This document shows, one piece after another, positions 5,401 through 39,923 of a DNA stretch of 64,000 nt. Origin of the DNA: Candidatus Gottesmanbacteria bacterium RIFCSPLOWO2_01_FULL_42_22 (GTDB lineage: Bacteria > Patescibacteriota > Microgenomatia > 2-02-FULL-39-11); contig MFJU01000006.1 in assembly GCA_001779315.1 (NCBI GenBank), positions 2,612 through 66,611 on the forward strand, given 5' to 3'. Numbering within the stretch: position 1 is the first letter of the stretch; every line of letters starts with the position of its first letter. A program made the translations under genes and the position numbers. Below the pieces are notes generated by a model. That model ran no database searches. It was not told where the DNA came from and saw only the letters and a list, made by a program, of their open reading frames with translations.

Positions 5401-5408
5401 TGTTAATT

Positions 5409-5952: not shown

Positions 5953-5956
5953 TTAA

Positions 5957-6094
5957 TTACACAGTCAGTTTTTTCCGTCCTTTAAGAGTCCTCTTCTTTA
6001 GGACGTTACGGCCGCCTTGGGTTTTTTGCCTGGCTCTGTAACCGTGCCGCTTAACTCTCCGGCTTTTTTTTGGTTGGTAAGTTCTTTTTGGCAT
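5957..6094 (-). CDS. rpmH: 50S ribosomal protein L34
   Basis: Hand translation of the minus strand gives [45 protein letters not shown] (45 aa), a clear L34 sequence. It is below the ORF-track length cutoff. Confidence 0.85.
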
Positions 6095-6139
6095 TTGGCA
6101 AATGATACCACAATTTATAGAAAATATCACTTCATCCGT

Positions 6140-6168
6140 GTTGACAGTTGTGGATAACTTTTCTACGA
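6140..6168 (+). promoter_or_regulatory. dnaA promoter (-35 TTGACA, 17-nt spacer, -10 TACGAT) with a perfect DnaA box (TGTGGATAA, 6149-6157) inside the spacer
   Basis: Read directly from the sequence. A DnaA box overlapping the dnaA promoter is the classic autoregulatory arrangement. Confidence 0.55.
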
Positions 6169-6179
6169 TGTGGAAATCT

Positions 6180-7521: not shown

Positions 7522-7537
7522 AGATTTAGTTAACAAC

Positions 7538-7716
7538 TTATCCACTAAAAAACAAAATTTATCAACATAAGAATACACATTAATAAAAGGCTGTTATACA
7601 CAGGAAAAATTAACTATTTGGAGCTTGTTGACTGTTAGGGCTAAATTAACTACACTTATCAACACTTTCTAATACTACTAATACTATAAAAGATATAAGG
7701 ACTTAATAAAAAGAGC
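7538..7716. promoter_or_regulatory. Candidate oriC: cluster of DnaA-box-like 9-mers plus an AT-rich unwinding region in the dnaA-dnaN intergenic spacer
   Basis: ttatccact (7538-7546), ttatcaaca (7559-7567), ttatacaca (7594-7602), ttatcaaca (7657-7665), followed by the very AT-rich tract ctaatactactaatactataaaagatataagg. Confidence 0.6.
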
Positions 7717-8826
7717 ATGAAAATATTAATTTTAAAAGAGAATCTTGTAAGAGCTTTATCGATTGTAGGAAAAGGGATTTCCCTAAGACCTCAATTACCT
7801 ATTCTGTCTCACATTTTACTCAAGGCTGCCAAAAACCGTCTGGAGTTTTTATCTACTAATTTGGAATTGGGAATTATATACCAAACTTCAGCCAAAATCG
7901 AAAAAGAAGGAGAAGTAGCAGTACCGGGAAAACTCCTGACGGAATTTATTAATTCATTAGCAGCGGACAAATTGGAAATTACGGCAACTGATAAAAGCCT
8001 GGAAATAAAAACAGAGACAAGCCGCGCCTCCTTTGCTATCGGTAACCCGGCTGACTTCCCCATTTTTCCCCAAACTGTTGCTTTTGACCGGAAGTTGCCC
8101 TTTTCAAAAATCAAAGATTCAATTATCCGTATGGCTTTTGCCGCATCTACCGACGAAGGCCGCCCCGTACTGACAGGGGTCAGGACCAGAATCACAGATG
8201 GAAAACTGTCGATGTCGGCAACCGACGGCTACCGTTTATCCAAAGAAGAAGTCGTTGTCATGGGAAAAAACGAGACCCTGGAAGTTATCATTCCCGCCCA
8301 ATCACTTTTGGAAGTCGTCAGAATTGCCCAGGAACTTAAAACAGAAGAACTGGGTATTTCCATTATTGAAAATAAAAACCAGGTAGTCTTTTCCCTACCC
8401 GATACCAAAATATACAGCCGGCTTATAGACGGCGAATTTCCCAATGTGGAAAAAATTATCCCCGACAGTTTTAAGACCAGAGTCATTCTGGACAAAGAGT
8501 TGTTTTTCCAAGCCGTCAAAACAACTTCTATTTTTGCCCGGGGAGCGGCCAATATCATCAAAATAAAAATCGAGAAAGAAGGGGTCAGGCTTTCAGCCAA
8601 CACTCCTCAAGTCGGTGAAGAAACTGATTATATTGAAGCCAAAATTGAAGGGGAAGAAAGCGAAGTGGCTTTTAATTTCCGTTTTTTACTGGATCTTCTC
8701 AATAACTTTCCGGAAAAAGAACTGGTTTTTGAATCCTCGGGACCTCTCTCTCCGGGTGTTTTTAGACCGAAAACGGATGAAATTTCATTTCTTCACATCA
8801 TTATGCCGGTCCGCGTCCAGGGGTAG
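7717..8826 (+). CDS. dnaN: DNA polymerase III beta sliding clamp
   Basis: 369 aa, DnaN-like three-domain length, directly after dnaA. Confidence 0.85.
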   Translation: MKILILKENLVRALSIVGKGISLRPQLPILSHILLKAAKNRLEFLSTNLELGIIYQTSAKIEKEGEVAVPGKLLTEFINSLAADKLEITATDKSLEIKTETSRASFAIGNPADFPIFPQTVAFDRKLPFSKIKDSIIRMAFAASTDEGRPVLTGVRTRITDGKLSMSATDGYRLSKEEVVVMGKNETLEVIIPAQSLLEVVRIAQELKTEELGISIIENKNQVVFSLPDTKIYSRLIDGEFPNVEKIIPDSFKTRVILDKELFFQAVKTTSIFARGAANIIKIKIEKEGVRLSANTPQVGEETDYIEAKIEGEESEVAFNFRFLLDLLNNFPEKELVFESSGPLSPGVFRPKTDEISFLHIIMPVRVQG

Positions 8827-10449
8827 ATCAACTAAGCGGTAATTAATGTCCAGGCGTTCTTTTTCAAAGGCAACCCAGGAGGCAGAATTATTTATCAGAT
8901 TTAAATTTTTTTCCTCAAAATTCTTCCAGGCAATATAGCGGCTGTTTCGGTAAAAAGCCATATCAGCCGGCACCGGTTCCACACCGACAAGCTGTGTACT
9001 GCCTGAATTTTTAATAAACATAAAAACAACTATTCCAGCGACTACATATACTGCAAATTTAGCAGCTGATAAAGTTAGTTTTAAAGCTGCTTCGTCCAGA
9101 CCCAGAGCTTGAATGATAGCCAAAGCTCCATTCCCTAAAAAAGGGACGACAAAAGCTAATGCTTGTTCTGCCAGTTTAAGTCCTGCTTTAGTGATAGCTT
9201 TAGTCGCTAATTTCCTAACTGCAGCTTCCGCCATGGCTTTAATCCGGCTGATAATTTGATGCATTATTGCTGCAACTATCTGCTGCATGATATTTGCCGC
9301 CAGGTTTTGCATATCAGCCATGTTAGAAACAAACGAAGATAAGGTTTTCCTAATTTTCGGTTTGCCTTGGCCAGGCGGTGGACCCCCCGGAGGTCCTTTG
9401 TGCTGACTGGTTATCTTCTCGGGCACCTTTTCCGCTAAAGGTTGATCGAATTTTGGTTTGGCTCCTTCCAGGACATTTTCAAAATGGGCTCCTTCAGCAA
9501 GGCCCCCTGAAAGGGCTGATAAATCGAATTCAGGTTTTGCCGCTGGAGGTTTGGCGATTTCTTTTTCAGCTTCTTTTCTTTTTGCCGCTTGTCCTGCCTC
9601 TGACTGAATCAACTGTTCTTCCGTTATACCTTCTGCAAAACCGGCTGCCAGTTTCTCCTCGGGGATTTTTCCTTCATAAATATAATCCAGTCTCGACTTT
9701 AATTGTTCTTCGGTTAATCTGGTATTTTGCGGATCAAGGGTATCGTGTTTAAGAACGCCTTCTGCCTTTTCAAAAATGCCTGCTTCTGTTACCCTGGCGA
9801 TTGCTTCTTCCCGGGCGGTTAAGAGGTCGTTTTTTAGTGCCCGTTCGGCTTTACCGTCAGCTTTTTTACCCTCTTTATTGCACTGGTCATGGTATATTTT
9901 TTTTGCCTGGCGGGAAAGTTCATCATCGATTGAGGCACGGGGATTTTTCTCCCGCCATTCGGAAAGCCCCTTTTTCAGCTGTTGGGAATTCTCGTCACTT
10001 AAAGTGAAACGGTCAATCGCTTTCTCTGTCTTGATTGATTCTTCCAGCCGTGCGGTATGCTGGTGGACGTGTTGGGCAATTTTAATCGCTGTACCCACAC
10101 GATCGTATCTATCCCTGGTGACTTCCCCTTTAAATCTGAAAAAAGCAAATTTGGTAGAATCTTTCTTTTTATTTTTTAGTCGGCGGCCGATTAATGCATG
10201 ACTGTCGATGACTCTTTGAAGTTCATGCGGATTCCGAAGATTCAACAATCGCTGATGGATGTTTTCGTCACTGATAGTTTTAAACGCTTTCTTGGTATCA
10301 TCAGTATATTTATATCCTCCTGCGCCTCCGGCAATTGTTAGTTGTATAAGGGAAGCCCAGGTTGCGGAATCCCGCTGGTCGAGGTCAAATCCCTGTTTTT
10401 CTTCTTCCGCAGTTTCCGGAGTAGACTTACCGTGTCCGGCTGTGTTCAT
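8785..10449 (-). CDS. Hypothetical protein with C-terminal TM segments, part of a T4SS-like gene cluster
   Basis: 554 aa; charged/coiled N-terminal two-thirds, Gly/Pro-rich linker (GPPGGPPPGQGKP), hydrophobic C-terminal segments; co-directional with and directly downstream of the VirB4-like ATPase. Confidence 0.35.
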   Translation of the reverse strand: MNTAGHGKSTPETAEEEKQGFDLDQRDSATWASLIQLTIAGGAGGYKYTDDTKKAFKTISDENIHQRLLNLRNPHELQRVIDSHALIGRRLKNKKKDSTKFAFFRFKGEVTRDRYDRVGTAIKIAQHVHQHTARLEESIKTEKAIDRFTLSDENSQQLKKGLSEWREKNPRASIDDELSRQAKKIYHDQCNKEGKKADGKAERALKNDLLTAREEAIARVTEAGIFEKAEGVLKHDTLDPQNTRLTEEQLKSRLDYIYEGKIPEEKLAAGFAEGITEEQLIQSEAGQAAKRKEAEKEIAKPPAAKPEFDLSALSGGLAEGAHFENVLEGAKPKFDQPLAEKVPEKITSQHKGPPGGPPPGQGKPKIRKTLSSFVSNMADMQNLAANIMQQIVAAIMHQIISRIKAMAEAAVRKLATKAITKAGLKLAEQALAFVVPFLGNGALAIIQALGLDEAALKLTLSAAKFAVYVVAGIVVFMFIKNSGSTQLVGVEPVPADMAFYRNSRYIAWKNFEEKNLNLINNSASWVAFEKERLDINYRLVDLPLDADRHNDVKK

Positions 10450-10459: not shown

Positions 10460-12415
10460 TTATACACTTTGGATTTGAGGCATATTGGCAGGCAATGGTT
10501 TTTCCTGCTTCATTTCACCGGGTTTGGAGGTTGCCAGTTGGTATTCCTGGGCGGAGGCGATAAATTGGACGGCAGCATGTGAAGCACCGGCAAAAAACAG
10601 GCCTTCCCCCACCCCGGCTGATAAGAGAAAGTGCTTTTCCCCGCTTGACAGATAAAAAACTTCAGCCAGTTTATCAATAGCTGCCGTTGACTGTTTAAGA
10701 AGCACCTGCAAACTGGAATTGGTGATGATGGCTTTGCCGTGGTCGGTCGACAGGAAATCTTCCACATCTTGCGTGATGGTGGTCACCCCTAAATAATATT
10801 TTCTGGCCCTTTTGGCAATGCTGTAAAGAAAAGTGGCAGAATCAGGATGCTTCATCAGGTACCAGGCCTCATCAACCACCAGGATTCTTTTTTTGACCTC
10901 CCTTTTGATTTTCGTCCAGATAAAGTCAAGAATGGAGAAAATGGCCATCGGCCTCAATTCCGCTTCCAGTTCTTTGATATTAAAAACCGTCAAGGCATTT
11001 TTTAAATGCAGATTGGACTGTTGGTTGAAAATACCTGCCAAAGATCCCTTAACAAATTTTTCGAGGCGTTCTGCCAATCTGCGGGCGTTCTCTTCTTCCA
11101 TGCCCAAAAGGACTTTATATAAATCTTCCATCAGGGGCGGTTCCCTTTTTTGGGTTTCTGGATCAGGTGTTATCCCCTTCTGTTTATAGGTGGATACCAA
11201 TGCTTTGTCCAAAAGGGCATCCTCGGTAGGGTTTAATTCTCCCATGATCACTCTCATTAGGCCGTGAAGCGAAAGGATTTTTAAGCCCAATTCGTTTTCC
11301 CCCTCAGATACAATCCCCGAAAGATCAAAAGGATTGATCTTAACGGGTGAATTGAAGGAAAAATCCAATTGGTCTCCTCCCAATGTTTTGGTGATATCCG
11401 TGTATTCGCCTTCAGGATCAATGACAAAGACGTCGGTGCCGAACATTAAAGTACGCATGACTTCCAGTTTGACCAGAAAGGATTTGCCTGAACCGGATTT
11501 GCCGAAGATGACGCTGTTGCTGTTTTCCAGAGAGAAGCGGTTGAAAATTACCAAAGAACCGTCATGCTCGTTGATCCCGTAAAGGATGCCTTCATTAGCG
11601 GTAAGGGAGGCTGTTGTGAATGGAAAAGTGGTAGCCAGTGATGTTGTGTCCATGTTTCTGGTTATATCCAGCTTGTCGAGAGACATAGGTAAGGTCGATT
11701 TGAAACCGTCTTCCTGGGAAAGGGTGGCGTGCTTGGGGACAATCAGTAAAGAGCCCAGGGTTGACTCAACTTCCTTTGATGATCTGTTCAGCTCTTCTAT
11801 AGTATCTGCCGGGATAGAAACATAGAGAGAAAACTGGTAAAATCTTTCAGCGCCTTTTGCCAGTTGGGATTGAAGGGCTAGAGCGTCATCGAGTGAGACC
11901 TGGACTGACGGATCAATAACTTTGCCTCTTTTCATATCGACCTGAATGGTGGCCTCCATTTCAGCGATTTTCCTTTTGAGGTCTTCTAATATCACTTTTG
12001 ATTCAGCGGGGTAAATATACATGGAAATAAAAAGCGATTTGTCAAAAGACAATAATGGGTGAAGCCAGTTGGAAGCTACATATCTGGGATAACCGGCTAC
12101 GAACAAGGTGCGGTAAAAAGTATTATTGACTCTGATGTTGTCAAAATCAACTTCGACGAGAGAAGGAGCGATAATATCGCGGATATTGACCAATCCTTTG
12201 GTCAATTTTTGTTTGGCCTCCAAGAGCTGATTGCTTTTAGCAGTATTGGCGGCCCGGTTATTGACAACCGCATGACTGATTACCGGCTGAACTGGCTGGC
12301 CTACTGTTTGCAGATTCGGTTTAACACCGGGTTGAACCGGCTGAAGTGGTTGGACTGCCGCCACCGGTTTAGGAAGGATTGAAACAGGCGCTTTTTTTTT
12401 AGAAAATAAGGACAT
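10460..12415 (-). CDS. virB4: VirB4/TrbE/CagE-family type IV secretion ATPase
   Basis: 651 aa; Walker A VIFGKSGSGKSFLV and Walker B RILVVDEAWYLM; overall VirB4 architecture. Confidence 0.7.
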   Translation of the reverse strand: MSLFSKKKAPVSILPKPVAAVQPLQPVQPGVKPNLQTVGQPVQPVISHAVVNNRAANTAKSNQLLEAKQKLTKGLVNIRDIIAPSLVEVDFDNIRVNNTFYRTLFVAGYPRYVASNWLHPLLSFDKSLFISMYIYPAESKVILEDLKRKIAEMEATIQVDMKRGKVIDPSVQVSLDDALALQSQLAKGAERFYQFSLYVSIPADTIEELNRSSKEVESTLGSLLIVPKHATLSQEDGFKSTLPMSLDKLDITRNMDTTSLATTFPFTTASLTANEGILYGINEHDGSLVIFNRFSLENSNSVIFGKSGSGKSFLVKLEVMRTLMFGTDVFVIDPEGEYTDITKTLGGDQLDFSFNSPVKINPFDLSGIVSEGENELGLKILSLHGLMRVIMGELNPTEDALLDKALVSTYKQKGITPDPETQKREPPLMEDLYKVLLGMEEENARRLAERLEKFVKGSLAGIFNQQSNLHLKNALTVFNIKELEAELRPMAIFSILDFIWTKIKREVKKRILVVDEAWYLMKHPDSATFLYSIAKRARKYYLGVTTITQDVEDFLSTDHGKAIITNSSLQVLLKQSTAAIDKLAEVFYLSSGEKHFLLSAGVGEGLFFAGASHAAVQFIASAQEYQLATSKPGEMKQEKPLPANMPQIQSV

Positions 12416-12421
12416 ATAAAA

Positions 12422-13090
12422 TTAGATACCTTCAACTAAAGGCTTGCTATAACCGATTGCTTCCCCCAATTTTTCACCGATTAAAGTCGGATTATAAATA
12501 TTATAAAAAAGCTCAACCAATTCCTGGGTCGGCAGCTGTCGGCCTTTAAGTCCGATCCTGCCTAATTGTCTTAAAATATGATCCCTTTTAGGATAAAGGG
12601 AGGTTTTGGCTCGGGAGAGGATATAATCCTTGGCAAAGGGGAGTTTTTTCTTTTTTCCGGATACAGAGAAAGCTTCTTTGATGCCTAATTCCAGGGGTGA
12701 AAAGGGCACAACCAGGTAGAATTTTTTTTCCAAAACCCTGTTTTCCTTAATAGTAGAAAGGATGAATTCACGGTAAGTACGAATTCTGTCCCTGATTACC
12801 GGATTCGGCTGCTTTGTTTCTTCCTGGACAATGTAGTCAATATAGGAGGAAATATCCATTCTTTTGGAAAGAATAACCACCTGCAGGGGAAAAGAGAGTG
12901 AATTTAAAAAAGAAGCATAAGCGTAAATAAGCGCATCCTGTTCATCTTCGGACAAAAGGCCGAAATTGACCGCTGTGGTTTCCAGAAGGACCGCCGCACC
13001 TGCCGTCCTTAAGATCAAAATATCATCAATAATATCCTCAATGTCCAGAAAATCCTGGGTGCTGGCTCTGATAGGCGCTGAATTTTGCAT
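12422..13090 (-). CDS. Hypothetical protein (T4SS-cluster associated)
   Basis: 222-aa ORF between the PrgI-like gene and virB4; no recognisable motif. Confidence 0.3.
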   Translation of the reverse strand: MQNSAPIRASTQDFLDIEDIIDDILILRTAGAAVLLETTAVNFGLLSEDEQDALIYAYASFLNSLSFPLQVVILSKRMDISSYIDYIVQEETKQPNPVIRDRIRTYREFILSTIKENRVLEKKFYLVVPFSPLELGIKEAFSVSGKKKKLPFAKDYILSRAKTSLYPKRDHILRQLGRIGLKGRQLPTQELVELFYNIYNPTLIGEKLGEAIGYSKPLVEGI

Positions 13091-13140: not shown

Positions 13141-14376
13141 TCAGATTCCGGGATTACTAAAAAGTTCTTTATTTAATTGTTCGCGGATTTGCTCTTTTTC
13201 TCCTTTGGCGCTGATTTCAATCGGGAGAAAAATTTTTCCCTCGAGATTGATTTCTGCGATATCAAAAGTATATCTTTTTAAAGGATCTTCAGCTTCCACA
13301 TAATATGTACCGTTTTGCAAGGGTGTGGCCGTCGAGAATTGTCCCAGGCGGTTGGTTTTTAAGGCGCGGTGAGGATTACCTTTGGTGTCTTTTATGGTCA
13401 GTATGATATTGGGCAACAATTTTTTACTGCTGTCTTTAATGATTCCCATAATAATATTGGGTGCTTGGGGCAATTTCGGGATACCGATTTCGTTTACAGC
13501 GCTTCTCGGGGTTACTGTTTTGATGGTTGGTTTGGCTGCCTCTTTTTCTTCTTTCGGTTTAATGATGGCCGCAGCAGATGTTTTAGCAAGCTCATCTTTC
13601 AGTTTTATTAATTCTTCTTCCAGTTTTTCTTTTTCCTCTCTCAAATTTATTATTTTATCTTCCTCTGCCGGTGGCCTACTTACAGGGAGGGAGACGGGTT
13701 TGACAGCGGGGATTGTTGTTTGAGCGGGAGGTGGAGAAGGAGTTTGTTGTAAGGACGCTACAGGAGGTTTAAGCGGTGCGACAGAAATAACAGGTTTTAT
13801 TTGAGGTTGAAAGGTGGCTGTCAATTTAGGCGGCTGGACAATGGTTGATTGAGGCATCGAAGGTTGAAAATTAGCCGCTAAGGTAGCGGCAGTTGTGGCA
13901 AAAAGCTGCATAGTTTGATCGACATAGTGTTTTTCCCTGATATTTATTTGCTGATAGGGTTGGGCGGGCAGGGACTGAAGATAATTTTCCAGTTTTTTTT
14001 TAGCATCGACATGAGCTTCCTGGTGATTTTGCGGCAGGACTTTTGTTTGGGCATTATAAGCATAGGCCAGAATATCCGGCATATCTTCGACCTTTTGCCA
14101 GAGGTATTGCGTCGGCGACAGAATGCTTTTGATAAAAGCGACAATCCATTTGTCCAGTGGCCTTTCTTGAATGGGCAGGAAAGCAAAGGCAAAGCCGGAT
14201 AAAACTGCGGCTCCGATAATCGGATATGACAAAAGAGGAGGCAAGGGTAAAGTCTTATAAAGGATAAAACCGATGATGAAACCGCTAATTAAATAGCCGA
14301 ATTGCCTTACCGTCATGTCCCCGATGAGATGGAATTGAAAACTGGAAATATTTCTGGGTATAGGGTGTTGCTCCAT
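13141..14376 (-). CDS. PrgI-like (VirB3-analogue) two-TM N-terminal domain fused to a long coiled-coil/Pro-rich extension and a C-terminal globular domain
   Basis: N-terminus DMTVRQFGYLISGFIIGFILYKTLPLPPLLSYPIIGAAVLSGFAFAFLPIQERPLDKW matches the PrgI-family pattern (T-RQ, two TM helices, G-PLD-W); 411 aa in total. Confidence 0.45.
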   Translation of the reverse strand: MEQHPIPRNISSFQFHLIGDMTVRQFGYLISGFIIGFILYKTLPLPPLLSYPIIGAAVLSGFAFAFLPIQERPLDKWIVAFIKSILSPTQYLWQKVEDMPDILAYAYNAQTKVLPQNHQEAHVDAKKKLENYLQSLPAQPYQQINIREKHYVDQTMQLFATTAATLAANFQPSMPQSTIVQPPKLTATFQPQIKPVISVAPLKPPVASLQQTPSPPPAQTTIPAVKPVSLPVSRPPAEEDKIINLREEKEKLEEELIKLKDELAKTSAAAIIKPKEEKEAAKPTIKTVTPRSAVNEIGIPKLPQAPNIIMGIIKDSSKKLLPNIILTIKDTKGNPHRALKTNRLGQFSTATPLQNGTYYVEAEDPLKRYTFDIAEINLEGKIFLPIEISAKGEKEQIREQLNKELFSNPGI

Positions 14377-14536: not shown

Positions 14537-17500
14537 ATGCCGGGTCAGCTTTTTAAGTTCACCAAATACTTTAAAAAAGATCAGATTAAGAATCAGCCTG
14601 ATGATACTACTAGTCAGGTTCAGGAAGGTTCAACTGCAGTTACTTATTCACAGGCAAGTCCAAGCCAATCACCGCCGCAAGCCCCGATCCAATCGGGGCA
14701 AGCATATTCCGGCATCGGCAAGCCGTCCGGTAGTCAACAGGCTTATTCCGGTATTGGCAATCCGCCGACCCCTCCTCCGCCTCCCACTGCTTCCGATCAG
14801 AATGCAGCGGGACAGGCAGGCAAGACCGGGCAAAATGCCGCTTCATCAATTGATATGGGTAAAAGAGTCGGCATGGACGTTCTCTCCCGGATGACTCAAA
14901 GGTCAAATGATATTCTGTTGAAAGCAGTCACCAAAGTCAAAGAGCTTAAGGGACAGCATATTGATACGGAACATGTTTTATGGGCCCTTCTTTCAGATTC
15001 GGCTATCTACCAGCTGATATCAGACTGTAAAGCTGTTCCTTCAGAAATCCAGGCAGAATTGGAGAAAAGTTTTAAAAAAGGCAATTTTTCAGGTAATCCC
15101 CAATTTTCTCCCAGGATCAAAAGAGTTTTGGAATTATCTTTATCAACGGCCAAATCATTAGGTTATGAATTTATTTCTCCCGAGCACATTCTTTTAGCCC
15201 TTTCCCATGAAGGCGAAGGCTTGGCCGCCCAAGTTTTGAATAAATTTCACCTGACACAACAAGTTTTAAATCAGAAAATAACCGGTAAGAAAGAACTGGA
15301 GAAGAAGGAAGATGCTAGGAAACAGACAACTTTAGAGCAGTTTACCGATGATCTGACAGCTAAAGCAGCGCGGGGCGAACTGGATCCGGTAGTTGGCCGG
15401 AGTTGGGAGATCGAAAGGGTGATTCATATACTTTCCCGCCGCACAAAGAACAATCCGGTTTTAATCGGTGATGCGGGAGTAGGTAAAACAGCCATAGTTG
15501 AGGGCATGGCCCAGAGAATTGCCACAGGTGATGTGCCGGAAACACTGCTGCATAAAAGGATTTTGCAGCTGGATTTGATGTCTTTGATAGCCGGGGCCAG
15601 ACATCGGGGCGAGTTTGAAGAAAGGCTCAAGAATTTAATCAAAGAAGTCAAGTCAGCTGCCGGTTCCATTATTTTATTTATTGATGAGCTTCATAACATG
15701 GTTGGTGCCGGTTCAGGCGGTGAAGGCACCATGGATGCTTCCAATATCCTTAAACCTTCACTCGCCCGCGGAGAGCTTCAGGTAGTCGGGACAACCACCG
15801 TCACCGAATACCGTAAATACATTGAAAAAGACCCGGCTTTGGAAAGAAGATTCCAGCCGATCATTGTGGCTGAACCCACGAAAGATATCGCGGTGGAGAT
15901 GCTTTTGGCCATCCGTGATAAATATGAAGCCTTCCACCGGGTCAAGATTCCGGATGAGACGGTTGAGGAAGCGGTCAGATTATCCCAAAGATATATTGCC
16001 GACCGCTTTCTGCCGGATAAAGCAGTCGACCTTATCGACGAAGCAGCGGCTGCCGTGAGATTACCGGCCATTTCGTTGCCTGAAGAAATCAAAAGCAGCG
16101 AAAACAAATTGAAAAAACTGGAGCACGAAAAAGGGGAAGCGGAAAAAGCAGGAGACACAGTCAGATTCGAAAGCCTGAAAAGGGAAATTGATGACATAGG
16201 TAAAAGCCTGACGGAACTGAAAGAGCAGTATCAAATCAAAAAGTCGACAACCACCAATTCCGTTAATAAAGAGGTCATTGCGGAAATTGTGGCTCGCTGG
16301 ACCAACATTCCGGTTTCCCGCCTGACGGAAAGCGAAGCGGTTAAACTTATGGAACTTGAGAAAACCATCCATAAAAGATTGATTGACCAGGAAGAAGCTG
16401 TCTCGGCTGTCTCTGAGGCGGTCAGGCGCGGACGCGCCGGTCTCAAATCCAACAAAAGGCCGATCGGCTCTTTTATTTTCATGGGTCCGACAGGAGTCGG
16501 TAAGACGGAACTGGCCAAATCATTAGCGGAAATCCTTTTCGGCAGCGAGGAAATGATGGTCAGGCTGGACATGACGGAATACATGGAAAAACATGAAGTG
16601 GCCAAACTTATCGGTGCTCCCCCGGGCTATGTCGGCTATGACGAGGGCGGGCAGTTGACAGAAGCGGTGCGCCGCAGACCTTATTCCGTAGTTTTATTGG
16701 ATGAAATCGAAAAAGCCCATCCGGACGTTTTTAATATATTGATCCAGCTTTTGGATGATGGCCGGCTGACCGATAACAAGGGACACACCGTTTCCTTTAA
16801 AAACTCCATCATAATCTGTACCTCAAATTTGGGAAGCTCCATCATTCAGGAAGAGATGCTCAGCTGGGAGCAGGGAAATCTGCCCGCAAGCATGCTTAAG
16901 GAAAAAACCAAAATGATCAGGACTTATGTTATCTCTCCTACCGGCCGCGAAATTATATCATTAGACGGAATCCTCTGGCAGAAAGACCCCGGGCAGACTC
17001 TATGGAAAAAATCGGACCTGAAAGAATATTTTGCCGGCAATCAGACAATCGGGGTAGCACCTCAAGAACCGACGACAGAACAATCTCCACAAACTGATAA
17101 GACGCAGCCGCAAAATCAAGCCCAAGCATCGGGCAATTTTCCCGGGAGTTTCGATACCCATGTAATCGGAGCTGACGGCAGTGAAACCATCACTTCTGAT
17201 GACACTCTCTGGTTCAGAACCTCAACCATATCCAAGGAATGGCATTCCTCAAAGCTTTTGGAGAATTTGAAAGACCATATTGTCATCAACGCCAAGCCGG
17301 ACAAGCCGGAAGAACAGCTGCCAACTGCTAAACTTGATAGCCATGCTGTCAATTTAAAAAATGAGGAGTTTATTTCACTCAATGACCGTTTCTGGATGCG
17401 GCCGAATTTACAGGTCAAAGACTGGACGACCGGCACCCTGGGGGAATATTTTGCCGATGCATCCGTTGAGGAGGAAGCTGTTGCTAACGAGGCAAAACCC

Positions 17501-18571
17501 GGATCCAAAGATGCCACCGCCAGCCTGATGCAGCAAAGACAGGCGAAAAAAGAGATTTTTCCGGTTGAGAAATGGGAGATGCATCTGTTTAAGCCCTCAG
17601 GTGAAGAAATTATTATTGCCGGGGGCAAATTCTGGCTTAAGAAAGATGCCGCGCAAAAAATTTGGCAGACAGGATCTTTGGAAAAATTATTTACCACTCT
17701 TAAGATCGAAGCTTCCGAAGAATTGCTGCCGGTGAAAGCGGAAAAGGAAACGAAAAGTCCCAAAGAAGAAGAGCAGTTTGAAAAGCTTTCCAAAAAACTG
17801 ATGGAGGAACTGCGGAAATTCTTCCGGCCGGAACTGCTTAACCGTTTCGATGAGGTAACCATTTTTCGCCCCTTGGGACCGGAGCACATGCTGGAGATCG
17901 TTGACCTGCAGATGACTACCTTGATTAAAATCCTCCAGGAACAGGGCATTGGTCTGGCTGTTTCCCCCAGCGCCAAACTTTACCTGGCCGAGATCGGTTT
18001 CGACCCGATCTTCGGCGCCCGGCCTTTGAGAAGGACAATCCAGAGAGTGATTGAAAATCCGGTTTCCTCCTTTCTTATTAAAGGGGAGTTGTCAGCCGGA
18101 GACACGATCAATGTCGACTACAACAACAAGGAACTCACTTTCGATATTAAAAAAATGGTTCCTCTGAAAACTGCTGATAAACAGGCAGATGAAAAAGCTG
18201 TCACACCTGAAGAACCTAAAGATAATTATCTCTGCCAGACGTGCGGTCATGCCTGGTCAGTTGAGAAAGGCCTAAAAACGGAAATTTGCCCTGCCTGCCA
18301 GGCTACAGCTATTGCCTTGGTTGTCCCTGCCAAGGAAGAAAAGGCGGTTGCTGAAGTTGCTCCGCCGCCGGTAGCAGCGGTTACAGAAACCCCGTCATCA
18401 CAAGTCCCGACGCCGCCGCCGGCAGCCAATCCGCCAGCCAGTCCTCCGGTTAATCCCCCGCCTTACCAAAATCCGTTGGAAAATTATTTTACTGCTACAG
18501 CCGACAGTGCCCAGGGACAAGCGGCGGCACCCTCGAGGGATCCAAACGCTCCCCCAGCAACTACTGTCTGA
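14537..18571 (+). CDS. Atypical ClpC/ClpB-family AAA+ chaperone (two AAA modules) with Q/P-rich N-terminal extension, a ~330-aa repeat insertion in D2, a C-terminal zinc ribbon and a Pro-rich tail
   Basis: Clp_N repeats, Walker [12 protein letters not shown] (D1) and [12 protein letters not shown] (D2), short UVR-like linker. Between the sensor-1 ICTSNLGS and ELLNRFDE there are four ~30-aa repeats of the form [IV]-[ST]-x-[DNG]-[DG]-x2-[LF]-W-x9-W-x3-G-[ST]-L-x2-[LY]-F; C-terminus [23 protein letters not shown]. 1344 aa against ~810-870 for canonical ClpC/ClpB. Confidence 0.7.
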
Positions 18572-19256
18572 CATCATTTTGCTGAAGTTTTTTCCCCAGA
18601 GACAGACATAAGAAAACCGATAAATCGATGGCAGCCGCAATTGACAGATAAATATTCAGTTTTGCTAAATATGAAGAGACGCTATCGATAAAGCGCTGAT
18701 TCGCTTCAATTGAGAGGCCGGACAAATGGCCGGCTAAGAGCAAAAGCAGTAAAATGGGTAAAACCATCACAAAACTTTTTAAATCCCTTTTGCTGGAAAA
18801 CATGCCTGAAGTAATTTGAAATAGGGCAATAAACCCCATTATTTTAAAGATAAAATTTTCGCTTTTTAAAAGCATTGACACGTCGCCGATCAGAAATATA
18901 CCGGCCAGCCAAACACAGGCAATTCCGGCAAACATGGGGGCAAGTCCGATCAGGCTTAATCTGAACGGATCGGCATGCCCGACCATGAGATGACCGGCTT
19001 TGACTTCCCCGTTTTTTTCAAATGTTGGAAAGATAGTCATCGAGCCGGTGGGAACGCGCAAAATAGTGGCCATCAGAAAGTGCGATAGCTCATGAACTAT
19101 TGTTCCCGGCAGAAAAGTCAGGGCAATAATCCAGACGGAAAGATGTTTCCGGCGGCTGATCTGAAATACAAACTGGAAAAAATACTTGACCGATTTTTTT
19201 ACAATGAGATATATCAGTATTATTAGTAAAAAGAAGAGAATCAGTTGCAGAAGCAT
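18561..19256 (-). CDS. Integral membrane HExxH metalloprotease-like protein (M50B/DUF3267-like)
   Basis: 231 aa, about 6 TM segments; HELSH motif in [15 protein letters not shown]. Confidence 0.35.
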
Positions 19257-19279: not shown

Positions 19280-21022
19280 TTATCCTTGACGATGATCCTC
19301 AAGAACCGTTCCGCTTTCCAAACCCTGTTGGATTTGCGAGGAAAACATAGCGGCCATCAGCATCATCAGCTTTAGTTTATCTGCTAAATGCATGTTTCTG
19401 ACCACTTCTATACCATCAAACTCATGGATTATTTTATTTGCTTCAAGACGTTTAAATAGAAGGTTATTCAACTCGGATTCAGGCAGATTTTTTTCGGTTT
19501 CGGTAAGAGTAGATCTGACTACCCTTTCATTATGATGTTCCAGCCAGGCAGCCGGATCACCAATTTCCATAAGATCGATGCCCATAGTTTCCATTCTTTC
19601 GTTAACTCCGTCAAAAAGAGTTTCATCTGTGCATAAACTCTTGATAAATGTTTTTTCACCTGGACTCAATTGCATTCCTGTTTCTTTAACTAATTGATCG
19701 TACGTTCCATCAAAGTCAAAAAAAATACTCCCCTTTTTCCTGGCAATATGCTGGAAGCGGGCTCCTAATACAAGAATCCCGACGCGTGATAATTGTCCAT
19801 TTATTATATCCTGGTATAATTGCTCAGGTTCTTTCGAGACTTGTTGAAGCAGAGGACGAATAATTTCATTATCGAATTTAAATAAGCCTACATCAAGAGT
19901 TTTTAATACATTCGGGTCTGAAAATTCTTTATTTATTTTTTCCAGGACAGGCTTAAGTATATTCTGCATATTTTCCGGCAATCCTTTTATATACTCTTCG
20001 CCGGACATCTCCTGGAAATGGCTGTAAAGAAGGCCTGCTACCATCTGTTTGTTTCTGGCCAGCGCTTTGGGGGCAAGTTTAATGTCGCCGTTATTTAACG
20101 AGGTATATCCCTCGTAGAGATATTCCAGCCAGGCGATCATCTGGTTTGGCGAAAAGACTTTTTTTAATGCTTCCGGATCATTGACATCAATCCCGTCAGC
20201 CAGCGCCAGTATGTCGTGAATGGTATTCTTAGTCTCGTTATAAACAATCTCTTCAGGGCCAAGATTTTCCATATCCTCAGGTTCTTGAGGCTGTTTTTGT
20301 TCCTGTTGCCCTTTCACCGTATCATCCCGGCCTATAAATCTTATTGTCACCCTGTCATTTAGCCGCTTATCCGGTTTTTCGGTTTTTAATATAGCTGTTT
20401 TTGCCTTAAGCCTGAAAGCATATTGAGTCAATGGGTCCAGTGCATCAAAACCACTGTCATTGGCAGCAGGATTTTTTGTATCAGCCTTCCAGATGGATCT
20501 GGCCCTGGAAGTTATTTCTTCATTCCATTGTGCCAATGTGACAGGTTCGTCCCTTCCTGTAATTGTAACTTCTGTACATTCGGCCAGATTTTCCAACGTT
20601 GCAGTAGCATCATCGTGAATTTGTTGTTGATCATCCGTTTCGGCCGGAGTCGCCTTCAGGCGTTCTAAATTATCAATTACCTCTGCAAATGATTCTTGTT
20701 GAAGTTTTACAATTTGTTCCGCAGTTCTCTCTTTGGCAGGAGTTTCAAAAAAACTGCTTAACCTTTTTCTCGCTTCCTCAATTTCTTCATCAGCGCGGGA
20801 AACAGTATCAGCCAATGAAGCCCTTATTTTTTCATCTTCAATTGAAGTTAGTTGTGTGGCAATTTCTCCCGGGGTGGATTCACGGACGGATTTACCTTTA
20901 TCCAGCAATTGATTAGCCCGCAAAGTAGCAGAATTCAACTTGCCTATCTCTAAAGGTTTAAGTTTTTCTCCTGCCATTATTTGTCGCGGAATTGCTTCGA
21001 CTGCAGGGAGTGCTATGGTCAT
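19280..21022 (-). CDS. Large hypothetical protein (580 aa), acidic, no recognisable domain
   Basis: Long clean ORF, no TM segments; co-directional with and directly upstream of the HExxH membrane protein. Confidence 0.5.
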   Translation of the reverse strand: MTIALPAVEAIPRQIMAGEKLKPLEIGKLNSATLRANQLLDKGKSVRESTPGEIATQLTSIEDEKIRASLADTVSRADEEIEEARKRLSSFFETPAKERTAEQIVKLQQESFAEVIDNLERLKATPAETDDQQQIHDDATATLENLAECTEVTITGRDEPVTLAQWNEEITSRARSIWKADTKNPAANDSGFDALDPLTQYAFRLKAKTAILKTEKPDKRLNDRVTIRFIGRDDTVKGQQEQKQPQEPEDMENLGPEEIVYNETKNTIHDILALADGIDVNDPEALKKVFSPNQMIAWLEYLYEGYTSLNNGDIKLAPKALARNKQMVAGLLYSHFQEMSGEEYIKGLPENMQNILKPVLEKINKEFSDPNVLKTLDVGLFKFDNEIIRPLLQQVSKEPEQLYQDIINGQLSRVGILVLGARFQHIARKKGSIFFDFDGTYDQLVKETGMQLSPGEKTFIKSLCTDETLFDGVNERMETMGIDLMEIGDPAAWLEHHNERVVRSTLTETEKNLPESELNNLLFKRLEANKIIHEFDGIEVVRNMHLADKLKLMMLMAAMFSSQIQQGLESGTVLEDHRQG

Positions 21023-21114: not shown

Positions 21115-24100
21115 ATGCCCGACGAACCCTTGCCGGCAAATATTCATCCTGCAGACACAAATGGTAACCTAGACAATCCACCACTTGCTGATGATGCTTC
21201 CGGCGGTTCAAACAGTGGCGTTTCAAGCGGACTTGATAATAGTTTCACTCCCAGAGCCGGCGGTTGGTCAAGAGGTGAGGCAGTCAGAGGTGAGTACCGG
21301 GGTAAAACCGAAATTTTGACACCGGAAAGTGAAATTGATTTCGGACCGGAAACGGAATACCGCCTATGGCGCAAAGTCAACGAATTGTCCAGCATCATGG
21401 GTGACAACCCGGGAGTGGGACTGACGGGTTTATATATAAAAGATAAAAATGCAGATTGGCGGACACAAGCGATATCAGCATCATGGCAGGAATTCGGAGG
21501 TATCCTAGACCAACTGGATATTATCAGCCAACAGCTGGCTGAAAAAGCCGTTGAGATAGCGGCAGCAACAGTCGGTCCTACAAAGACAAAGCTTGAAAAT
21601 GAGCGGGATGTGTTTATAAAAGAGAGGGATAAGCTTATAAAGGTGAAGGATGAAAGGTCACAAACCCTATCAGGACAGCACATATTTGGCGGGATTGTTG
21701 AAGCGATGCAGGCCAACTATTTTGTCGCCCAGCAGGAATTGGCAATTTCAGCTCAAGTCGGCTTAGCCCTCTCCAAAGACCAGGATAGAAATTTAGCTTT
21801 TGTTTTACCAACCCCCCAGGATATTGACATAATCTTACAGCAGGCGATTCCTGCTGCTGACAGAGGGAAATTAATCTACCTGAAAGAGAAGTTGGGCATA
21901 AAAGGATTATCGGATAAATTAAAAGCAAAACATCTCTATTTAATTTTGAGCGAGCTGGCTGTTGGAGGGGCTGCTGATTTGGCCGTGACACAGTTATTAA
22001 ATAATCCGTCACTGGGGAAAGCTGCCGGAATTGGCGGAGTTGCTTTGGCGGGTTTACACTCGGCAGCACTTATCTTCCGTTCTGTAGGAAAAGCAGTAGA
22101 GAGAGGGCATGCTGAATGGCAGCTGGCCCAGCCTGAAGGAAAACCTGAAGAAAAACTCACATTTAAATTGACTCTGACTGATACTGGCAGACGGCTGACC
22201 AGAGATCCTAATAATCCCATTTCCAGGCATTTCTCGGGGGTGGAGGGGACAAGGAATGCCGTCAGATTTCTGACAGAAAGCGAGACCGTCCGCGCGGAAA
22301 TCGCCCATTCTCTTAGGGTGGAGCCTTGGCAGATAGATCTGGCAGCTCCTAAAATGGCAATTGCCGAAGGCCGCGGCCAGGATACAATTTTGAACGGTTT
22401 AGCCCAGGATTATAAGGTCATAATTTTAGAGAGGCAGTTCAAACATGCGGATGGCTCTGTTATGCGTTTTGACGAATTGACGTTGGAACAGCAATCAGAT
22501 GTCTGGAGCCGGGCAATAGATATGGCCATGCAGCAATTCGGCGGAGATGATATCCGGAGAAAACTTGAGGAAGTAGCCAAGCGGGAAGCCAGAGGAGAGA
22601 GACCGGAAAGGTTTGAGGGAAGGAATGGAGAATTAATGGAACGGGCCCAGCAACTTCGAAGCGGTCAGTTCACCGAGGAAACTGCATCATCCCAAACAGC
22701 TGCCGAATTATCAAAGGAAAAACAAAAGAAACAGAATAGTATGGAACGGATGGCAGCGGCTAAAGAAAGACTGATAACTTTGGCAGTGGAAATTACTACT
22801 AAGGAAAATGAACGGGCTAGCGCTCAAGAAAATTTAGCTTCTGCCAAAGATGTCAGGGGTAGGCCGACCGTGATAAAGATTGATCCGACAGATTCTAACA
22901 AAATTATTGTCGTCAGTAAGGGGACGGGAGAGATCGGGCAACTGGAGGAACAAAAAAAGCGTGCAGAGGCGCAATATCAAACAGCTTTTGAAGCTAATGG
23001 AAGTTACGTTTTAAACGCATCAGGAGTATACGTATCCCAAGGCCTGACAAATAATATTGTTCAAGCTGATTATCAGCTATCTAGGGCAACGGACAGAAGG
23101 ATGCAGGCAGAAAGGACTTTAAAAGAGAGAACAGAAAAACTTAAGCGTTTAAAACAAGAGTTTGCCCGAAATGAAACAGCAACTAAAAAACTATCCCCAG
23201 ATACTGTTACACAAAAGAAAAATGAAATTGAACAGCTTGAAAAAGATGATATTACAGCTGAAGGCAGTATTGCCCAATCTGATGAAGAATTTAAAAAAAC
23301 TACTGAAGAGGAAGCGGGCAAAAAAGCGCTAAGTAAAAACCTTCATGATATCTACGATAAAAATGATAGACTGATTCAAAAACTTGACGGAGAAGCTACC
23401 CAGGTGGGTTCATTAGCCTGGTTTGATGCTCAAATTATTGCCGCTGTCGAGGATGTCGCTAATAAGGAAAAGGTCGTTAAGCAGAAAAAGCGTGAATTAC
23501 AAAGACTGCTGAAAGATCGAAATCAGCTTCTGACCGATGCTTTTGGGAAAGGCATCGCCGGTCAAAATCCTTCCGTTGCCGCAATTGCAGATATCATCTC
23601 CTCAGCCAACTCCGACCTGACAAAGACAGAAGAGGAAATTGCTAATCTTCAGACATTGGAAGCGGCCGGAGGCAGGAAACCGACTGAGGAGGAATTAGAA
23701 AGGGCTGACGCCATTGAACTGGCAGCCGGCTTGGAAACACCTGAAAAAATCAACGAATTGGAAATGATACTCCTCCGCGGTGGATTAACGAAAGAACTTG
23801 TGGTGACACATGGTGATAAAGGTATCCGTTTGCTCTATGAAGCTATGTTCGGAAGCACTGCCGTCCTGGAAGGGAAGGGCGGTAAATATCGTTTAGCCAG
23901 GAGACTGCTTTCCAAAGGCATGATCGTGGATAAGGCTATTGTCTCTTCAGGACTTTGGGGAATCGCTGAAAACCTGGATGCTTTTTTCGGAGGCAGGAGC
24001 GATTTAAAAGCAGAATATCATAAGGCACAAACCAATATTGCCTTAATTGAAACTTACAGGAGGGAAATCGCTGAACTTCGCATAAGGGGAGAAAATGATA

Positions 24101-25191
24101 AGGCAAACGGAAGGCTGGTGGACATAAGGCGATTGCAGCAGGAAAACGACCTGAAGCTGGGCCTGGTCTACGATGAGCTGGTGACTCCCCTATTATGTTT
24201 GGATGAAGTTAAGACAGCCGGTCTGATGATATCCCTTGCCGATGATATTTACGAAAGATGTAAGCAATACAATCCCTTTGGTGAAATAATCGGCCACCCG
24301 CAGCAATTTCAGGACAGGGAAATACGATCGACAGCCAATGGGGAGGTTACGGTCTATTATCCGGAGAGGAATGACAATGGCAGTCTTAAAAAAAGATCAA
24401 CCGTTATTGTGGAAAACCCAGGAGGAAATAACGGTATCCGCTATGAGGTTGGTATTGACAATACTGCTCCTGAAGGAAAATTACAGTTGACTGCCGCTGT
24501 TCCCAAATCAGACCAAATCCTTGACAAATTACCGGATACAGTTGTTTCCACAATGCCGGAAGAACTCAAATTTTTCTTTTACGATCCGCTAACGTTAAAT
24601 AAACGGGCAGATATTTCCCGGATCAATGCTTTTATTGACGGATTGACCGATGTTGCAGCCGTACAGGCTCTAACTGGAAATAAGGCGATCATCAGAATGC
24701 TGTTTAAGGTTACCAGTGAAGGCCCGCCGATAACCTACGGGGATAAAATAGCATCATCAGAAATAGCCCAGTTTGTCATTAGAAGAGATGCGGTTACTAT
24801 TTCAGATTTAACCGCGCTGGAATCGGAAATAGATGCAATACTGACAGGTACACAAGCTGACTTTATGCATTCGCTGGGTAATGCCTTAATTTATAACTCT
24901 TCAGAAGAAAACCGGCAACTTTATCAGGAGCACTTTCGCAGAGTTGGTATAGTCCCTTCACCCCAGACTTTTGCCGGGTGTGACTATTTTGTGATTCAGA
25001 ATGAATCAGGCAGACTGATTGCATATTATCAAAATCCATCTAATAATCGAGATGAGTCGTTAGAGTTGTATCAGATAATTGAGCAAAGGAGAATCCCTTC
25101 CTTAAATTATAATCTAAGCCAGGATGAGATTAATGCCTTGCTTCAGAGGGCAGCTGCTGAAGGATTTACAGCAATGCGGAAAGTCAGTTAA
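21115..25191 (+). CDS. Giant hypothetical protein (1358 aa) with Ser/Gly-rich N-terminus, long central coiled-coil and a distinct C-terminal globular domain
   Basis: Long clean ORF divergent from the 580-aa gene; extensive E/K/Q-rich heptad-like stretches between residues ~480-900; no catalytic motif recognised. Confidence 0.5.
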   Translation: MPDEPLPANIHPADTNGNLDNPPLADDASGGSNSGVSSGLDNSFTPRAGGWSRGEAVRGEYRGKTEILTPESEIDFGPETEYRLWRKVNELSSIMGDNPGVGLTGLYIKDKNADWRTQAISASWQEFGGILDQLDIISQQLAEKAVEIAAATVGPTKTKLENERDVFIKERDKLIKVKDERSQTLSGQHIFGGIVEAMQANYFVAQQELAISAQVGLALSKDQDRNLAFVLPTPQDIDIILQQAIPAADRGKLIYLKEKLGIKGLSDKLKAKHLYLILSELAVGGAADLAVTQLLNNPSLGKAAGIGGVALAGLHSAALIFRSVGKAVERGHAEWQLAQPEGKPEEKLTFKLTLTDTGRRLTRDPNNPISRHFSGVEGTRNAVRFLTESETVRAEIAHSLRVEPWQIDLAAPKMAIAEGRGQDTILNGLAQDYKVIILERQFKHADGSVMRFDELTLEQQSDVWSRAIDMAMQQFGGDDIRRKLEEVAKREARGERPERFEGRNGELMERAQQLRSGQFTEETASSQTAAELSKEKQKKQNSMERMAAAKERLITLAVEITTKENERASAQENLASAKDVRGRPTVIKIDPTDSNKIIVVSKGTGEIGQLEEQKKRAEAQYQTAFEANGSYVLNASGVYVSQGLTNNIVQADYQLSRATDRRMQAERTLKERTEKLKRLKQEFARNETATKKLSPDTVTQKKNEIEQLEKDDITAEGSIAQSDEEFKKTTEEEAGKKALSKNLHDIYDKNDRLIQKLDGEATQVGSLAWFDAQIIAAVEDVANKEKVVKQKKRELQRLLKDRNQLLTDAFGKGIAGQNPSVAAIADIISSANSDLTKTEEEIANLQTLEAAGGRKPTEEELERADAIELAAGLETPEKINELEMILLRGGLTKELVVTHGDKGIRLLYEAMFGSTAVLEGKGGKYRLARRLLSKGMIVDKAIVSSGLWGIAENLDAFFGGRSDLKAEYHKAQTNIALIETYRREIAELRIRGENDKANGRLVDIRRLQQENDLKLGLVYDELVTPLLCLDEVKTAGLMISLADDIYERCKQYNPFGEIIGHPQQFQDREIRSTANGEVTVYYPERNDNGSLKKRSTVIVENPGGNNGIRYEVGIDNTAPEGKLQLTAAVPKSDQILDKLPDTVVSTMPEELKFFFYDPLTLNKRADISRINAFIDGLTDVAAVQALTGNKAIIRMLFKVTSEGPPITYGDKIASSEIAQFVIRRDAVTISDLTALESEIDAILTGTQADFMHSLGNALIYNSSEENRQLYQEHFRRVGIVPSPQTFAGCDYFVIQNESGRLIAYYQNPSNNRDESLELYQIIEQRRIPSLNYNLSQDEINALLQRAAAEGFTAMRKVS

Positions 25192-37723: not shown

Positions 37724-37741
37724 AAAAGTTAAGGAATTACG

Positions 37742-39919: not shown

Positions 39920-39923
39920 ATAT

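Follow-up and report, generated by a model that had tools for sequence, protein, structure and literature searches.

ClpC-type Hsp100 unfoldases, such as those of Bacillus subtilis, Staphylococcus aureus and Mycobacterium tuberculosis (ClpC1), are built from a double Clp_N, a first AAA+ ring (D1), a single-coiled-coil M-domain, a second AAA+ ring (D2) and a D2-small domain. In ClpC, as in ClpA and ClpX, a flexible helix-loop-helix of D2, the P-loop, bears the [ILV]-G-[FL] tip (VGF or LGF in ClpC) that serves for docking to ClpP. The VGF tripeptide of ClpC is the tip of the P-loop, which lies at the bottom of the hexamer and enters hydrophobic pockets of ClpP, and mutation of this tip to GGR abolishes ClpP binding (bioRxiv 10.1101/2022.09.15.508104; PMC13125188). 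Other double AAA+ ring Hsp100s, namely ClpB/Hsp104, ClpV and ClpG/ClpK, have no ClpP-docking tripeptide, and ClpV provides a precedent for an Hsp100 dedicated to a secretion machine. In these proteins the loop is merely missing, and no folded domain stands at its position. Here, we describe a ClpC-type protein in which the P-loop is replaced by about 300 residues predicted to fold as a beta-propeller. Its gene lies in a 64,000-nucleotide stretch of DNA from Candidatus Gottesmanbacteria bacterium RIFCSPLOWO2_01_FULL_42_22 (assembly GCA_001779315.1, contig MFJU01000006.1, positions 2,612 to 66,611 of the forward strand), hereafter designated as the window. A first-pass annotation of this DNA, made from the sequence alone, had pointed to a repeat-bearing insertion in D2 of a ClpC-like chaperone and knew of no described Clp ATPase with such an insert. 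A literature search agrees with the latter statement, as no paper describing a Clp or Hsp100 protein with a beta-propeller at the P-loop site was found; nor was anything relevant found on insertions in ClpC of the candidate phyla radiation (CPR), on hemopexin combined with AAA+ or Clp, or on ClpP in Microgenomates or Patescibacteria.

The gene is an uninterrupted open reading frame (ORF) encoding a protein of 1344 amino acids (aa), in which Pfam recognizes Clp_N (two stretches), AAA, AAA_lid_9, AAA_2 and ClpB_D2-small, the AAA_2 match being broken off at residue 781. When compared with all PDB sequences using phmmer, the best match was B. subtilis ClpC (expectation value, E, 6.7e-236), and the alignment came in two pieces that pair residues 170-771 with ClpC 59-666 and residues 1078-1200 with ClpC 679-801. 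The main parts of the motor and the position of the insert are as follows.

14537-18571, forward strand: whole gene of the ClpC-type double AAA+ unfoldase, including the stop codon (ORF, Pfam and NCBIfam matches, alignment to B. subtilis ClpC)
14882-16849, forward strand: Clp_N, D1 AAA+ ring, short ClpC-type M-domain and start of the large subdomain of D2 as far as the helix past sensor-1 (Pfam; aligned to ClpC 59-666 with no large gap)
15602-15604, forward strand: His356 in place of the D1 pore-loop Tyr, KYR of ClpC being RHR here (phmmer alignment to ClpC)
Residues 311-318 and 650-657: Walker A motifs GDAGVGKT and GPTGVGKT
Residues 383-384 and 722-723: Walker B motifs (DE)
Residues 762-764: sensor-1 (TSN)
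16850-17767, forward strand: insert, residues 772-1077, replacing ClpC 667-678 with its VGF ClpP-docking tip
17768-18181, forward strand: rest of D2, with the Arg-finger helix (NRFDE, residues 1102-1106), D2-small and sensor-2 (GARPLRR, residues 1160-1166), aligned to ClpC 679-801

The two AAA+ modules thus carry the features of a class I Clp ATPase, including Walker A and B motifs, sensor-1, Arg finger and sensor-2, the D2 pore-loop GYVGY is kept, and the two-ring AAA+ motor core is intact. The double Clp_N and the length of the M-domain are those of ClpC: no gap of ClpB size occurs over residues 170-771, the M-domain being shorter than that of ClpB. A short ClpC-like M-domain combined with extra terminal domains, one of them Zn-binding, is also reminiscent of ClpG/ClpK. 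All NCBIfam equivalog cut-offs were missed, whether for ClpB (959.9 vs 1232.1), ClpK (806 vs 1900), ClpG (786 vs 1900), ClpA (731 vs 993) or ClpV1 (720 vs 885). The Tyr found in the D1 pore-loop of the ClpC class is absent, and His occupies this position in 106 of the 110 family members, the others having Gln or Ala; judged from these alignments, the loop by which the first ring grips its substrate is changed throughout the family. By its architecture, the Gottesmanbacteria Clp is therefore best classified as a ClpC-type Hsp100, yet one without the docking tripeptide and the D1 pore-loop Tyr. Further differences from ClpC are an N-terminal disordered extension of about 105 residues bearing YSGIGxPP motifs, a C-terminal Zn ribbon and a Pro-rich tail, and together these differences make a partnership with ClpP doubtful.

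The position of the insert is the central point. Residues 657-707 of B. subtilis ClpC read TSNVGASELKRNKYVGFNVQDETQNHKD..., with VGF at 671-673, and the phmmer alignment places 306 residues of the Gottesmanbacteria protein where ClpC has 12. The first-pass annotation had assumed 15-20 canonical residues between sensor-1 and the NRFDE-type segment; ClpC has about 39 between TSN and its EFINRIDE segment, so that the net insertion amounts to about 295-306 aa. Its large, conserved D2 insertion was confirmed, while the replacement of the ClpP-docking P-loop (VGF 671-673), as indicated by the alignment, had escaped it. With ClpC 667-678 replaced, the [ILV]-G-[FL] docking tip of the ClpC class is missing, and no conserved [ILVM]-G-[FLMY] tripeptide was found in the corresponding region of 120 homologues. 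Since the insert takes the place of the ClpP-docking element, it would have to protrude from the D2 ring on the side where the substrate exits, a placement that we infer from known ClpC/ClpE-ClpP structures. The N-terminal tether of the propeller (residues 781-791) is disordered. The M-domain of ClpB and ClpC shows that a surface loop of an Hsp100 ring can host a domain for regulation or partner binding; it is a coiled coil set into the small subdomain of D1, on the outer side of the ring, whereas the insert is a predicted beta-propeller in the D2 large subdomain, on the putative exit face.

The insert comprises four repeats, or blades, separated by linkers.

16922-17053, forward strand: blade 1, residues 796-839, four strands and a short helix, W814 and W823 (AlphaFold2, blade profile)
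17054-17137, forward strand: Q/P/T-rich disordered linker between blades 1 and 2 (predicted local distance difference test, pLDDT, below 50; length varies among homologues)
17138-17284, forward strand: blade 2, residues 868-916, starting with FP, with DTH, W892 and W902 (AlphaFold2, blade profile)
17318-17470, forward strand: blade 3, residues 928-978, starting with LPT, W953 and W963, preceded by a conserved connector (AlphaFold2, blade profile, alignments)
17558-17707, forward strand: blade 4, residues 1008-1057, starting with FP, with invariant H1016, W1033 and W1043 (AlphaFold2, blade profile, alignment)

The four W-x9-W repeats of the first-pass annotation correspond to four pairs of Trp at residues 814/823, 892/902, 953/963 and 1033/1043, although the spacing in blade 1 is x8 and only the other three are x9; the right repeats had been located, but the intervals given covered only the C-terminal two-thirds of each unit. 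Hidden Markov models (HMMs) of single blades, each built from 14 homologues, detect the three remaining blades and no other part of the protein (independent E 5e-4 to 2e-11), which indicates that the four repeats of about 45 aa are homologous and did not arise by chance. AlphaFold2 predicts a secondary structure of E-E-E-E-H repeated four times. When the insert was modelled alone from an alignment of seven sequences, each of its four modules consisted of four strands and a short helix, with disordered linkers in between (mean pLDDT 73, predicted template modelling score, pTM, 0.69); in a model of D2 with the propeller, based on a 90-sequence alignment, the blades reach pLDDT 93-98. Foldseek searches of the PDB with this fold ranked hemopexin at the top (1qhu and 1hxn, E 1.5e-7 and 2e-7), followed by the PEX domains of MMP-14, -13, -12, -9, -2 and -1, the plant albumins CP4 and LS24, and vitronectin. 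Target-normalised TM scores were up to 0.76, and six-bladed propellers ranked only below the four-bladed hemopexin-fold proteins. Taken together, AlphaFold2 and Foldseek predict a closed propeller of four blades.

At the sequence level, this relationship is hidden from direct searches. No Pfam family matched the insert at E<=1, so that the gathering score of PF00045 was not reached, and an HMM of the insert gave nothing significant against PDB sequences; a NEAT domain or sialidase identity was set aside, as the corresponding PDB-sequence matches were insignificant (E>=0.036). Searches with the insert or its profile alone returned 2-6 fragments, and the family became visible only with the full-length query. 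An exhaustive HMMER search of 1.84 billion representatives yielded 41 proteins at E<=1e-3, and some of the relatives are not Clp proteins: GH39-like/dockerin proteins (P0025, P0030, P0044), DUF2961 proteins (P0026, P0033, P0038) and P0041, together with P0034, which resembles the DUF2961 relatives yet has no Pfam match. Their repeats are of the type 'IDAAY..G.YTVIKG.RYWYR....W..NTL', and P0041 scores above the Pfam Hemopexin gathering score (24.0 vs 21.3 bits). A profile of these relatives, compared with the whole PDB, retrieved only hemopexin (E 0.004 and 0.006) and the hemopexin domain of MMP14 (E 0.23), and it aligned with all four blades of the Clp insert with an hhalign probability of 98.5% (E 2.5e-15). 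This transitive sequence link supports homology with hemopexin over mere analogy. Weak matches to WD40 proteins (P0040, P0042, P0043; E 1e-5 to 3e-4) reflect a repeat-summed similarity of the 'FSPDGR.VVT' type, and membership in this family was rejected.

The insert is thus predicted to be a divergent hemopexin-like four-bladed beta-propeller, too divergent for direct detection by Pfam. It shares with the hemopexin fold (PF00045: hemopexin, MMP PEX, vitronectin and plant PA2/CP4/LS24) the four blades of four antiparallel strands and a short helix, and its motif [D]-[TA]-[HA]...G.E/T.I...(R/Y)xW.R...W...L resembles the hemopexin IDAA..G..Y.F.G..YW. The first-pass annotation had held that its view would fall if the repeats matched a common known domain: a known fold did emerge, but with no direct Pfam match. 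Unlike hemopexin proteins, the insert has long disordered linkers between blades and contains no Cys (residues 772-1077), hence no blade 1-blade 4 disulfide, a trait of the animal members; this absence is to be expected because the protein is cytoplasmic. Also, the propeller lies inside an AAA+ domain of a cytoplasmic protein, while those of hemopexin proteins are terminal and extracellular. In the non-Clp proteins, hemopexin-like repeats stand upstream of the DUF2961 match in P0026, P0033 and P0038, with a similar situation in P0034, and are C-terminal in the GH39-like/dockerin proteins; several of these proteins have a hydrophobic N-terminal signal-like segment. Their repeats suggest a pool from which the Clp insert might have been drawn.

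Conservation was counted in 90 homologues with about 50-68% identity. Sixteen insert positions are invariant, including the second Trp of each blade (W823, W902, W963 and W1043), R951, H1016 and E1024; the invariant residues of blade 2 are P869, G881, E883 and W902. The first strands carry T-Y in blade 1 and [TS]-H/x-H in blades 2-4, and the conserved Tyr and His among them (Y797, H876, H936 and H1016) may face the central channel of the propeller. The linkers between blades are of low complexity, variable in length and predicted to be disordered. Past blade 4 is a short conserved tripeptide, and several motifs occur in the terminal regions of the protein.

17726-17734, forward strand: Phi-P-Phi tripeptide L1064-P1065-V1066 (Pro in 90/90, flanked by L/F/I and L/V)
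14537-14851, forward strand: N-terminal extension, a conserved start followed by a Q/P/S-rich disordered region (sequence; this N-terminus is kept in 13 genome homologues)
14705-14767, forward strand: two copies of Y-S-G-I-G-x-P-(P), residues 57-63 and 70-77 (homologue alignments)
18233-18298, forward strand: zinc-ribbon-like element CxxC-x14-CxxC, C1233/C1236/C1251/C1254 (sequence)
18470-18490, forward strand: N-P-L-E-x-Y-F motif, residues 1312-1318, within the Pro-rich tail (alignment; QNPLE.YF in homologues of the Gottesmanbacteria clade)

The Phi-P-Phi tripeptide ([LFI]-P-[LV]), part of the C-terminal tether of the propeller, is found at a constant distance of about 25 residues ahead of the invariant ELRKFFRPE helix, and its segment takes an ordered conformation in the AlphaFold2 model, the pLDDT being about 80 and residue 1063 forming a beta-bridge. 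The Q/P/S-rich extension (residues ~20-105), the C-terminal CxxC..CxxC element and the Pro-rich tail had all been noticed at first pass and were seen again. No Pfam match was obtained for the N-terminal extension, and those of the CxxC element to Zn-ribbon families were sub-threshold only (E ~4e-3). One to four copies of YSGIGxPP occur in most propeller-bearing homologues, and the motif is mostly missing from propeller-less orthologues. To our knowledge it resembles no described motif, and it differs from the ClpP-docking tip in that its third residue is polar. The NPLExYF island is common to the homologues of the Gottesmanbacteria clade and to some propeller-less ones, in a tail that is otherwise variable.

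The architecture is broadly distributed. At least 24 contigs of independent assemblies, among them GCA_001779415.1, GCA_001779425.1 and ENA assemblies, encode a protein identical over all 1344 aa, and the insert survived the check for artefacts that the first-pass annotation had called for, with no sign of a gene fusion. In a scan of one genome per species, an in-frame insert within a full-length clp gene (products of 1237-1579 aa) was found in 13 genomes, assigned to Candidatus Gottesmanbacteria, Roizmanbacteria and otherwise-labelled metagenome-assembled genomes. Blades were counted in the 120 best-scoring clusters (90% identity) for the full-length query. The insert is present in 111 of them, of which 102 have four blades in the order 1-2-3-4 and nine have 5-9 blades (8 or 9 in eight of the nine); the remainder comprises one truncated fragment and eight propeller-less proteins. 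The source names are Gottesman-, Roizman- and Woesebacteria, Microgenomates, Patescibacteria and one Parcubacteria label, most being Microgenomates. In the variants with 8-9 blades (P0097-P0099, P0101, P0104, P0106, P0124 and P0155; loci L015, 86-4825, and L016, 3454-8193), the insert reaches about 530-560 aa, and the blade order 1,1,2,3,4,(1),2,3,4 suggests a duplication of the whole propeller, giving two in tandem. P0019 (352 aa), a fragment similar to D2 but divergent, has a compact insert of four blades joined by short linkers and a degenerate Walker B (FANIEN for LDEIEK), and may be an inactive paralogue.

The eight close relatives without a propeller have a disordered linker of 48-112 aa at the same site. 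Their nearest kin by AAA+ core (78-85% identity) bear a propeller, and they fall into several separate groups. Two of them, P0103 (L019, 5001-7991) and P0107 (L020, 5001-7922), with a disordered linker of 70-86 aa at the P-loop site, have the neighbourhood of the window, with VirB4/TraG-like, TraC-like and PrgI-like genes divergent upstream and a gene for a membrane protein of about 235 aa convergent downstream. This shared synteny and the propeller-bearing nearest kin make them positional orthologues and imply that the propeller was lost at least twice. In none of the eight was an [ILV]-G-[FL] loop regained. As positional orthologues have lost the propeller and kept only a disordered linker, it is most simply regarded, from these comparisons, as an accessory module outside the motor proper. 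The D2 P-loop site appears to be an evolutionary hot spot, at which close relatives carry anything between 48 and about 560 residues. Several features tend to follow the propeller in counts that ignore kinship: the Zn ribbon was found in 60/99 propeller-bearing proteins vs 0/8 propeller-less ones, Phi-P-Phi in 94/99 vs 2/8, and YSGIG in 25 of the 33 full-length N-termini of propeller-bearing proteins vs 1/7 (Fisher p 0.004). These figures suggest that propeller, Phi-P-Phi, Zn ribbon and tail motifs constitute one functional module on a motor able to work without it.

The genes flanking clp, and other features of the window, are listed below.

18561-19256, reverse strand: multi-pass membrane protein of 231 aa with a HELSH (HExxH) motif, convergent to clp and overlapping its end by 11 nucleotides
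10460-12415, reverse strand: VirB4/TraG-like ATPase, divergent upstream of clp
12422-13090, reverse strand: TraC-like protein, divergent upstream of clp
13141-14376, reverse strand: PrgI-like membrane protein, divergent upstream of clp; a weak match of the CarboxypepD_reg type close to the C-terminus is sub-threshold
60101-62449, forward strand: coupling-protein-like ATPase
4109-4582, reverse strand: jag/khpB-like gene
4579-5400, reverse strand: yidC
6148-7521, forward strand: dnaA
7717-8826, forward strand: dnaN
36575-41179, forward strand: mevalonate-pathway cluster (HMG-CoA reductase, HMG-CoA-synthase-like, thiolase, GHMP kinase)
55721-55795, forward strand: AdoCbl-II riboswitch match (45.5 bits vs a gathering score of 36.5)

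The HExxH protein, to which neither Pfam nor NCBIfam assigns a family, is a possible membrane metallopeptidase. Its gene adjoins clp in loci L006-L012, L019 and L020, and lies downstream on the same strand in L014, this adjacency being confined to the Gottesmanbacteria clade and L014. Genes resembling those of type IV secretion systems (T4SS) adjoin clp only in the Gottesmanbacteria clade. Positions 4109-8826 correspond to the chromosomal origin region, and clp lies about 6 kb from dnaN. The riboswitch is flanked by a gene for a ribonucleotide reductase bearing a TSCPD domain (52819-55173) and by an ORF of 877 aa (55941-58574), for which neither Pfam nor NCBIfam gave a family. No significant family match was obtained for the ORFs at 19280-21022 (reverse strand, 580 aa), 21115-25191 (forward strand, 1358 aa) and 8785-10449 (reverse strand, 554 aa), the first of these having a weak GrpE-like coiled-coil match only (E 0.005).

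The reading that we favour, with a probability of roughly 0.55, is that of a lineage-specific ClpC-type unfoldase of Microgenomates, ClpP-independent or non-canonically coupled, whose six tethered propellers would constitute a protein-docking crown on the exit face. With a folded domain of about 200 residues per subunit in place of the docking tip, the hexamer would carry six propellers (twelve for the variants with 8-9 blades) suspended from its exit-face rim, the surface usually occupied by ClpP. The loss of the canonical docking tripeptide points to work without canonical ClpP docking, and the protein might then act, like ClpB, ClpG and ClpV, as an unfoldase or disaggregase on its own, with the crown as a platform for protein-protein docking. 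Hemopexin-type domains typically bind proteins or ligands, as do the PEX domains of MMPs, and candidate ligands for the crown would be some partner protein or the protein's own tail motifs, YSGIGxPP and NPLExYF, which co-vary with the propeller. A substrate- or adaptor-binding role of the insert is plausible, and its seat on the exit face argues for the docking of a partner over substrate capture on the entry side. Several points count against this picture or limit it. The distance from Phi-P-Phi to the Arg-finger helix is nearly that of the ClpC VGF, so that the tripeptide could be a derived docking tip. The tblastn search in which ClpP was not found, in agreement with the first-pass annotation as regards the window, covered only the window and about 250 kb of fetched loci, and among the loci compared no neighbouring gene is kept across all clades that would name a partner. 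The position in the hexamer is deduced from the location of the P-loop, with a pTM of only 0.64 for D2 plus propeller, and the co-variation statistics ignore phylogeny. A more specific version, in which the propeller ring would be an exit-face coupler to a non-ClpP partner, either the membrane HExxH neighbour or a T4SS-like apparatus, and hand over unfolded polypeptides to another protease or translocon in a new CPR-specific AAA+ pairing, is highly tentative.

The spacing of Phi-P-Phi leads to the view that the protein is still a partner of ClpP, with L-P-V as a derived P-loop tip and the propellers splayed around the interface as adaptor, substrate or gating modules. The tripeptide is indeed invariant (90/90) within an otherwise variable, charged linker; its distance of about 25 residues to ELRKFFRPE compares with 19-21 between VGF and the equivalent helix of ClpC, and long flexible linkers would let the propellers swing away. 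We nevertheless consider it unlikely, since Phi-P also occurs ahead of blades 2-4 and may be a mere blade element, is modelled by AlphaFold2 as an ordered segment, not a free loop, and, when followed by its second hydrophobic residue, decays once the propeller is lost (VPV, APL, VPA, LPS or absent in the proteins behind the 2/8 count), which ties the motif to the propeller, not to ClpP. We also know of no ClpP partner with Pro for the Gly of [ILV]-G-[FL]. Equally unlikely is self-association or self-regulation, in which the propeller would bind the protein's own tail motifs, resulting in auto-inhibition or head-to-tail assemblies like the resting state that ClpC adopts through its M-domain. 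YSGIGxPP and NPLExYF are short conserved islands in variable low-complexity tails, YSGIG and the Zn ribbon follow the propeller in the counts given above, and hemopexin domains are established as typically protein-binding; but the YSGIG association takes no account of phylogeny and stems from few loss events, the motif is missing from about a quarter of propeller-bearing proteins, and this proposal overlaps the docking crown and does not exclude it. That the insert might be a lineage-specific expansion with essentially no function, tolerated in a permissive surface loop and of a kind often seen in CPR proteins, would fit a site that accepts 48 to about 560 residues, the loss of the propeller in several lineages with no P-loop restored, and the low-complexity, variable linkers between blades. 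It is very improbable given the clear purifying selection on the blades (16 invariant and many >90% conserved positions in 90 sequences), the order 1-2-3-4 kept in 102 clusters, the duplication of the whole propeller as a unit elsewhere, the high confidence of the AlphaFold2 fold, and retention across Gottesman-, Roizman- and Woesebacteria. Finally, only its unusual length could make the insert an artefact of assembly or sequencing, a two-gene fusion, a mobile element or an intein, and this idea has almost no credibility: D2 resumes correctly past the insert in the ClpC alignment, artefact and fusion are refuted by the identical product on at least 24 contigs and by the same architecture in 13 genomes and more than 100 clusters, and no intein, transposase or other Pfam match was found in the insert.

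As judged from these comparisons, the architecture is a conserved domain arrangement across the lineage, and the mechanism is a proposal. This architecture places a hemopexin-type propeller, otherwise encountered in these searches on predicted glycoside-hydrolase-like proteins, inside the core of an AAA+ protein. What defines the contact of Clp unfoldases with ClpP is the P-loop, and the lineage-wide exchange of this loop for a folded interaction domain would imply a different use of the Hsp100 motor, either as a motor without ClpP that carries a docking platform on its exit side or with a non-canonical coupling to ClpP. This Clp may be the main Hsp100 of CPR bacteria, and the identity of its partners would inform our view of protein maintenance in reduced genomes.

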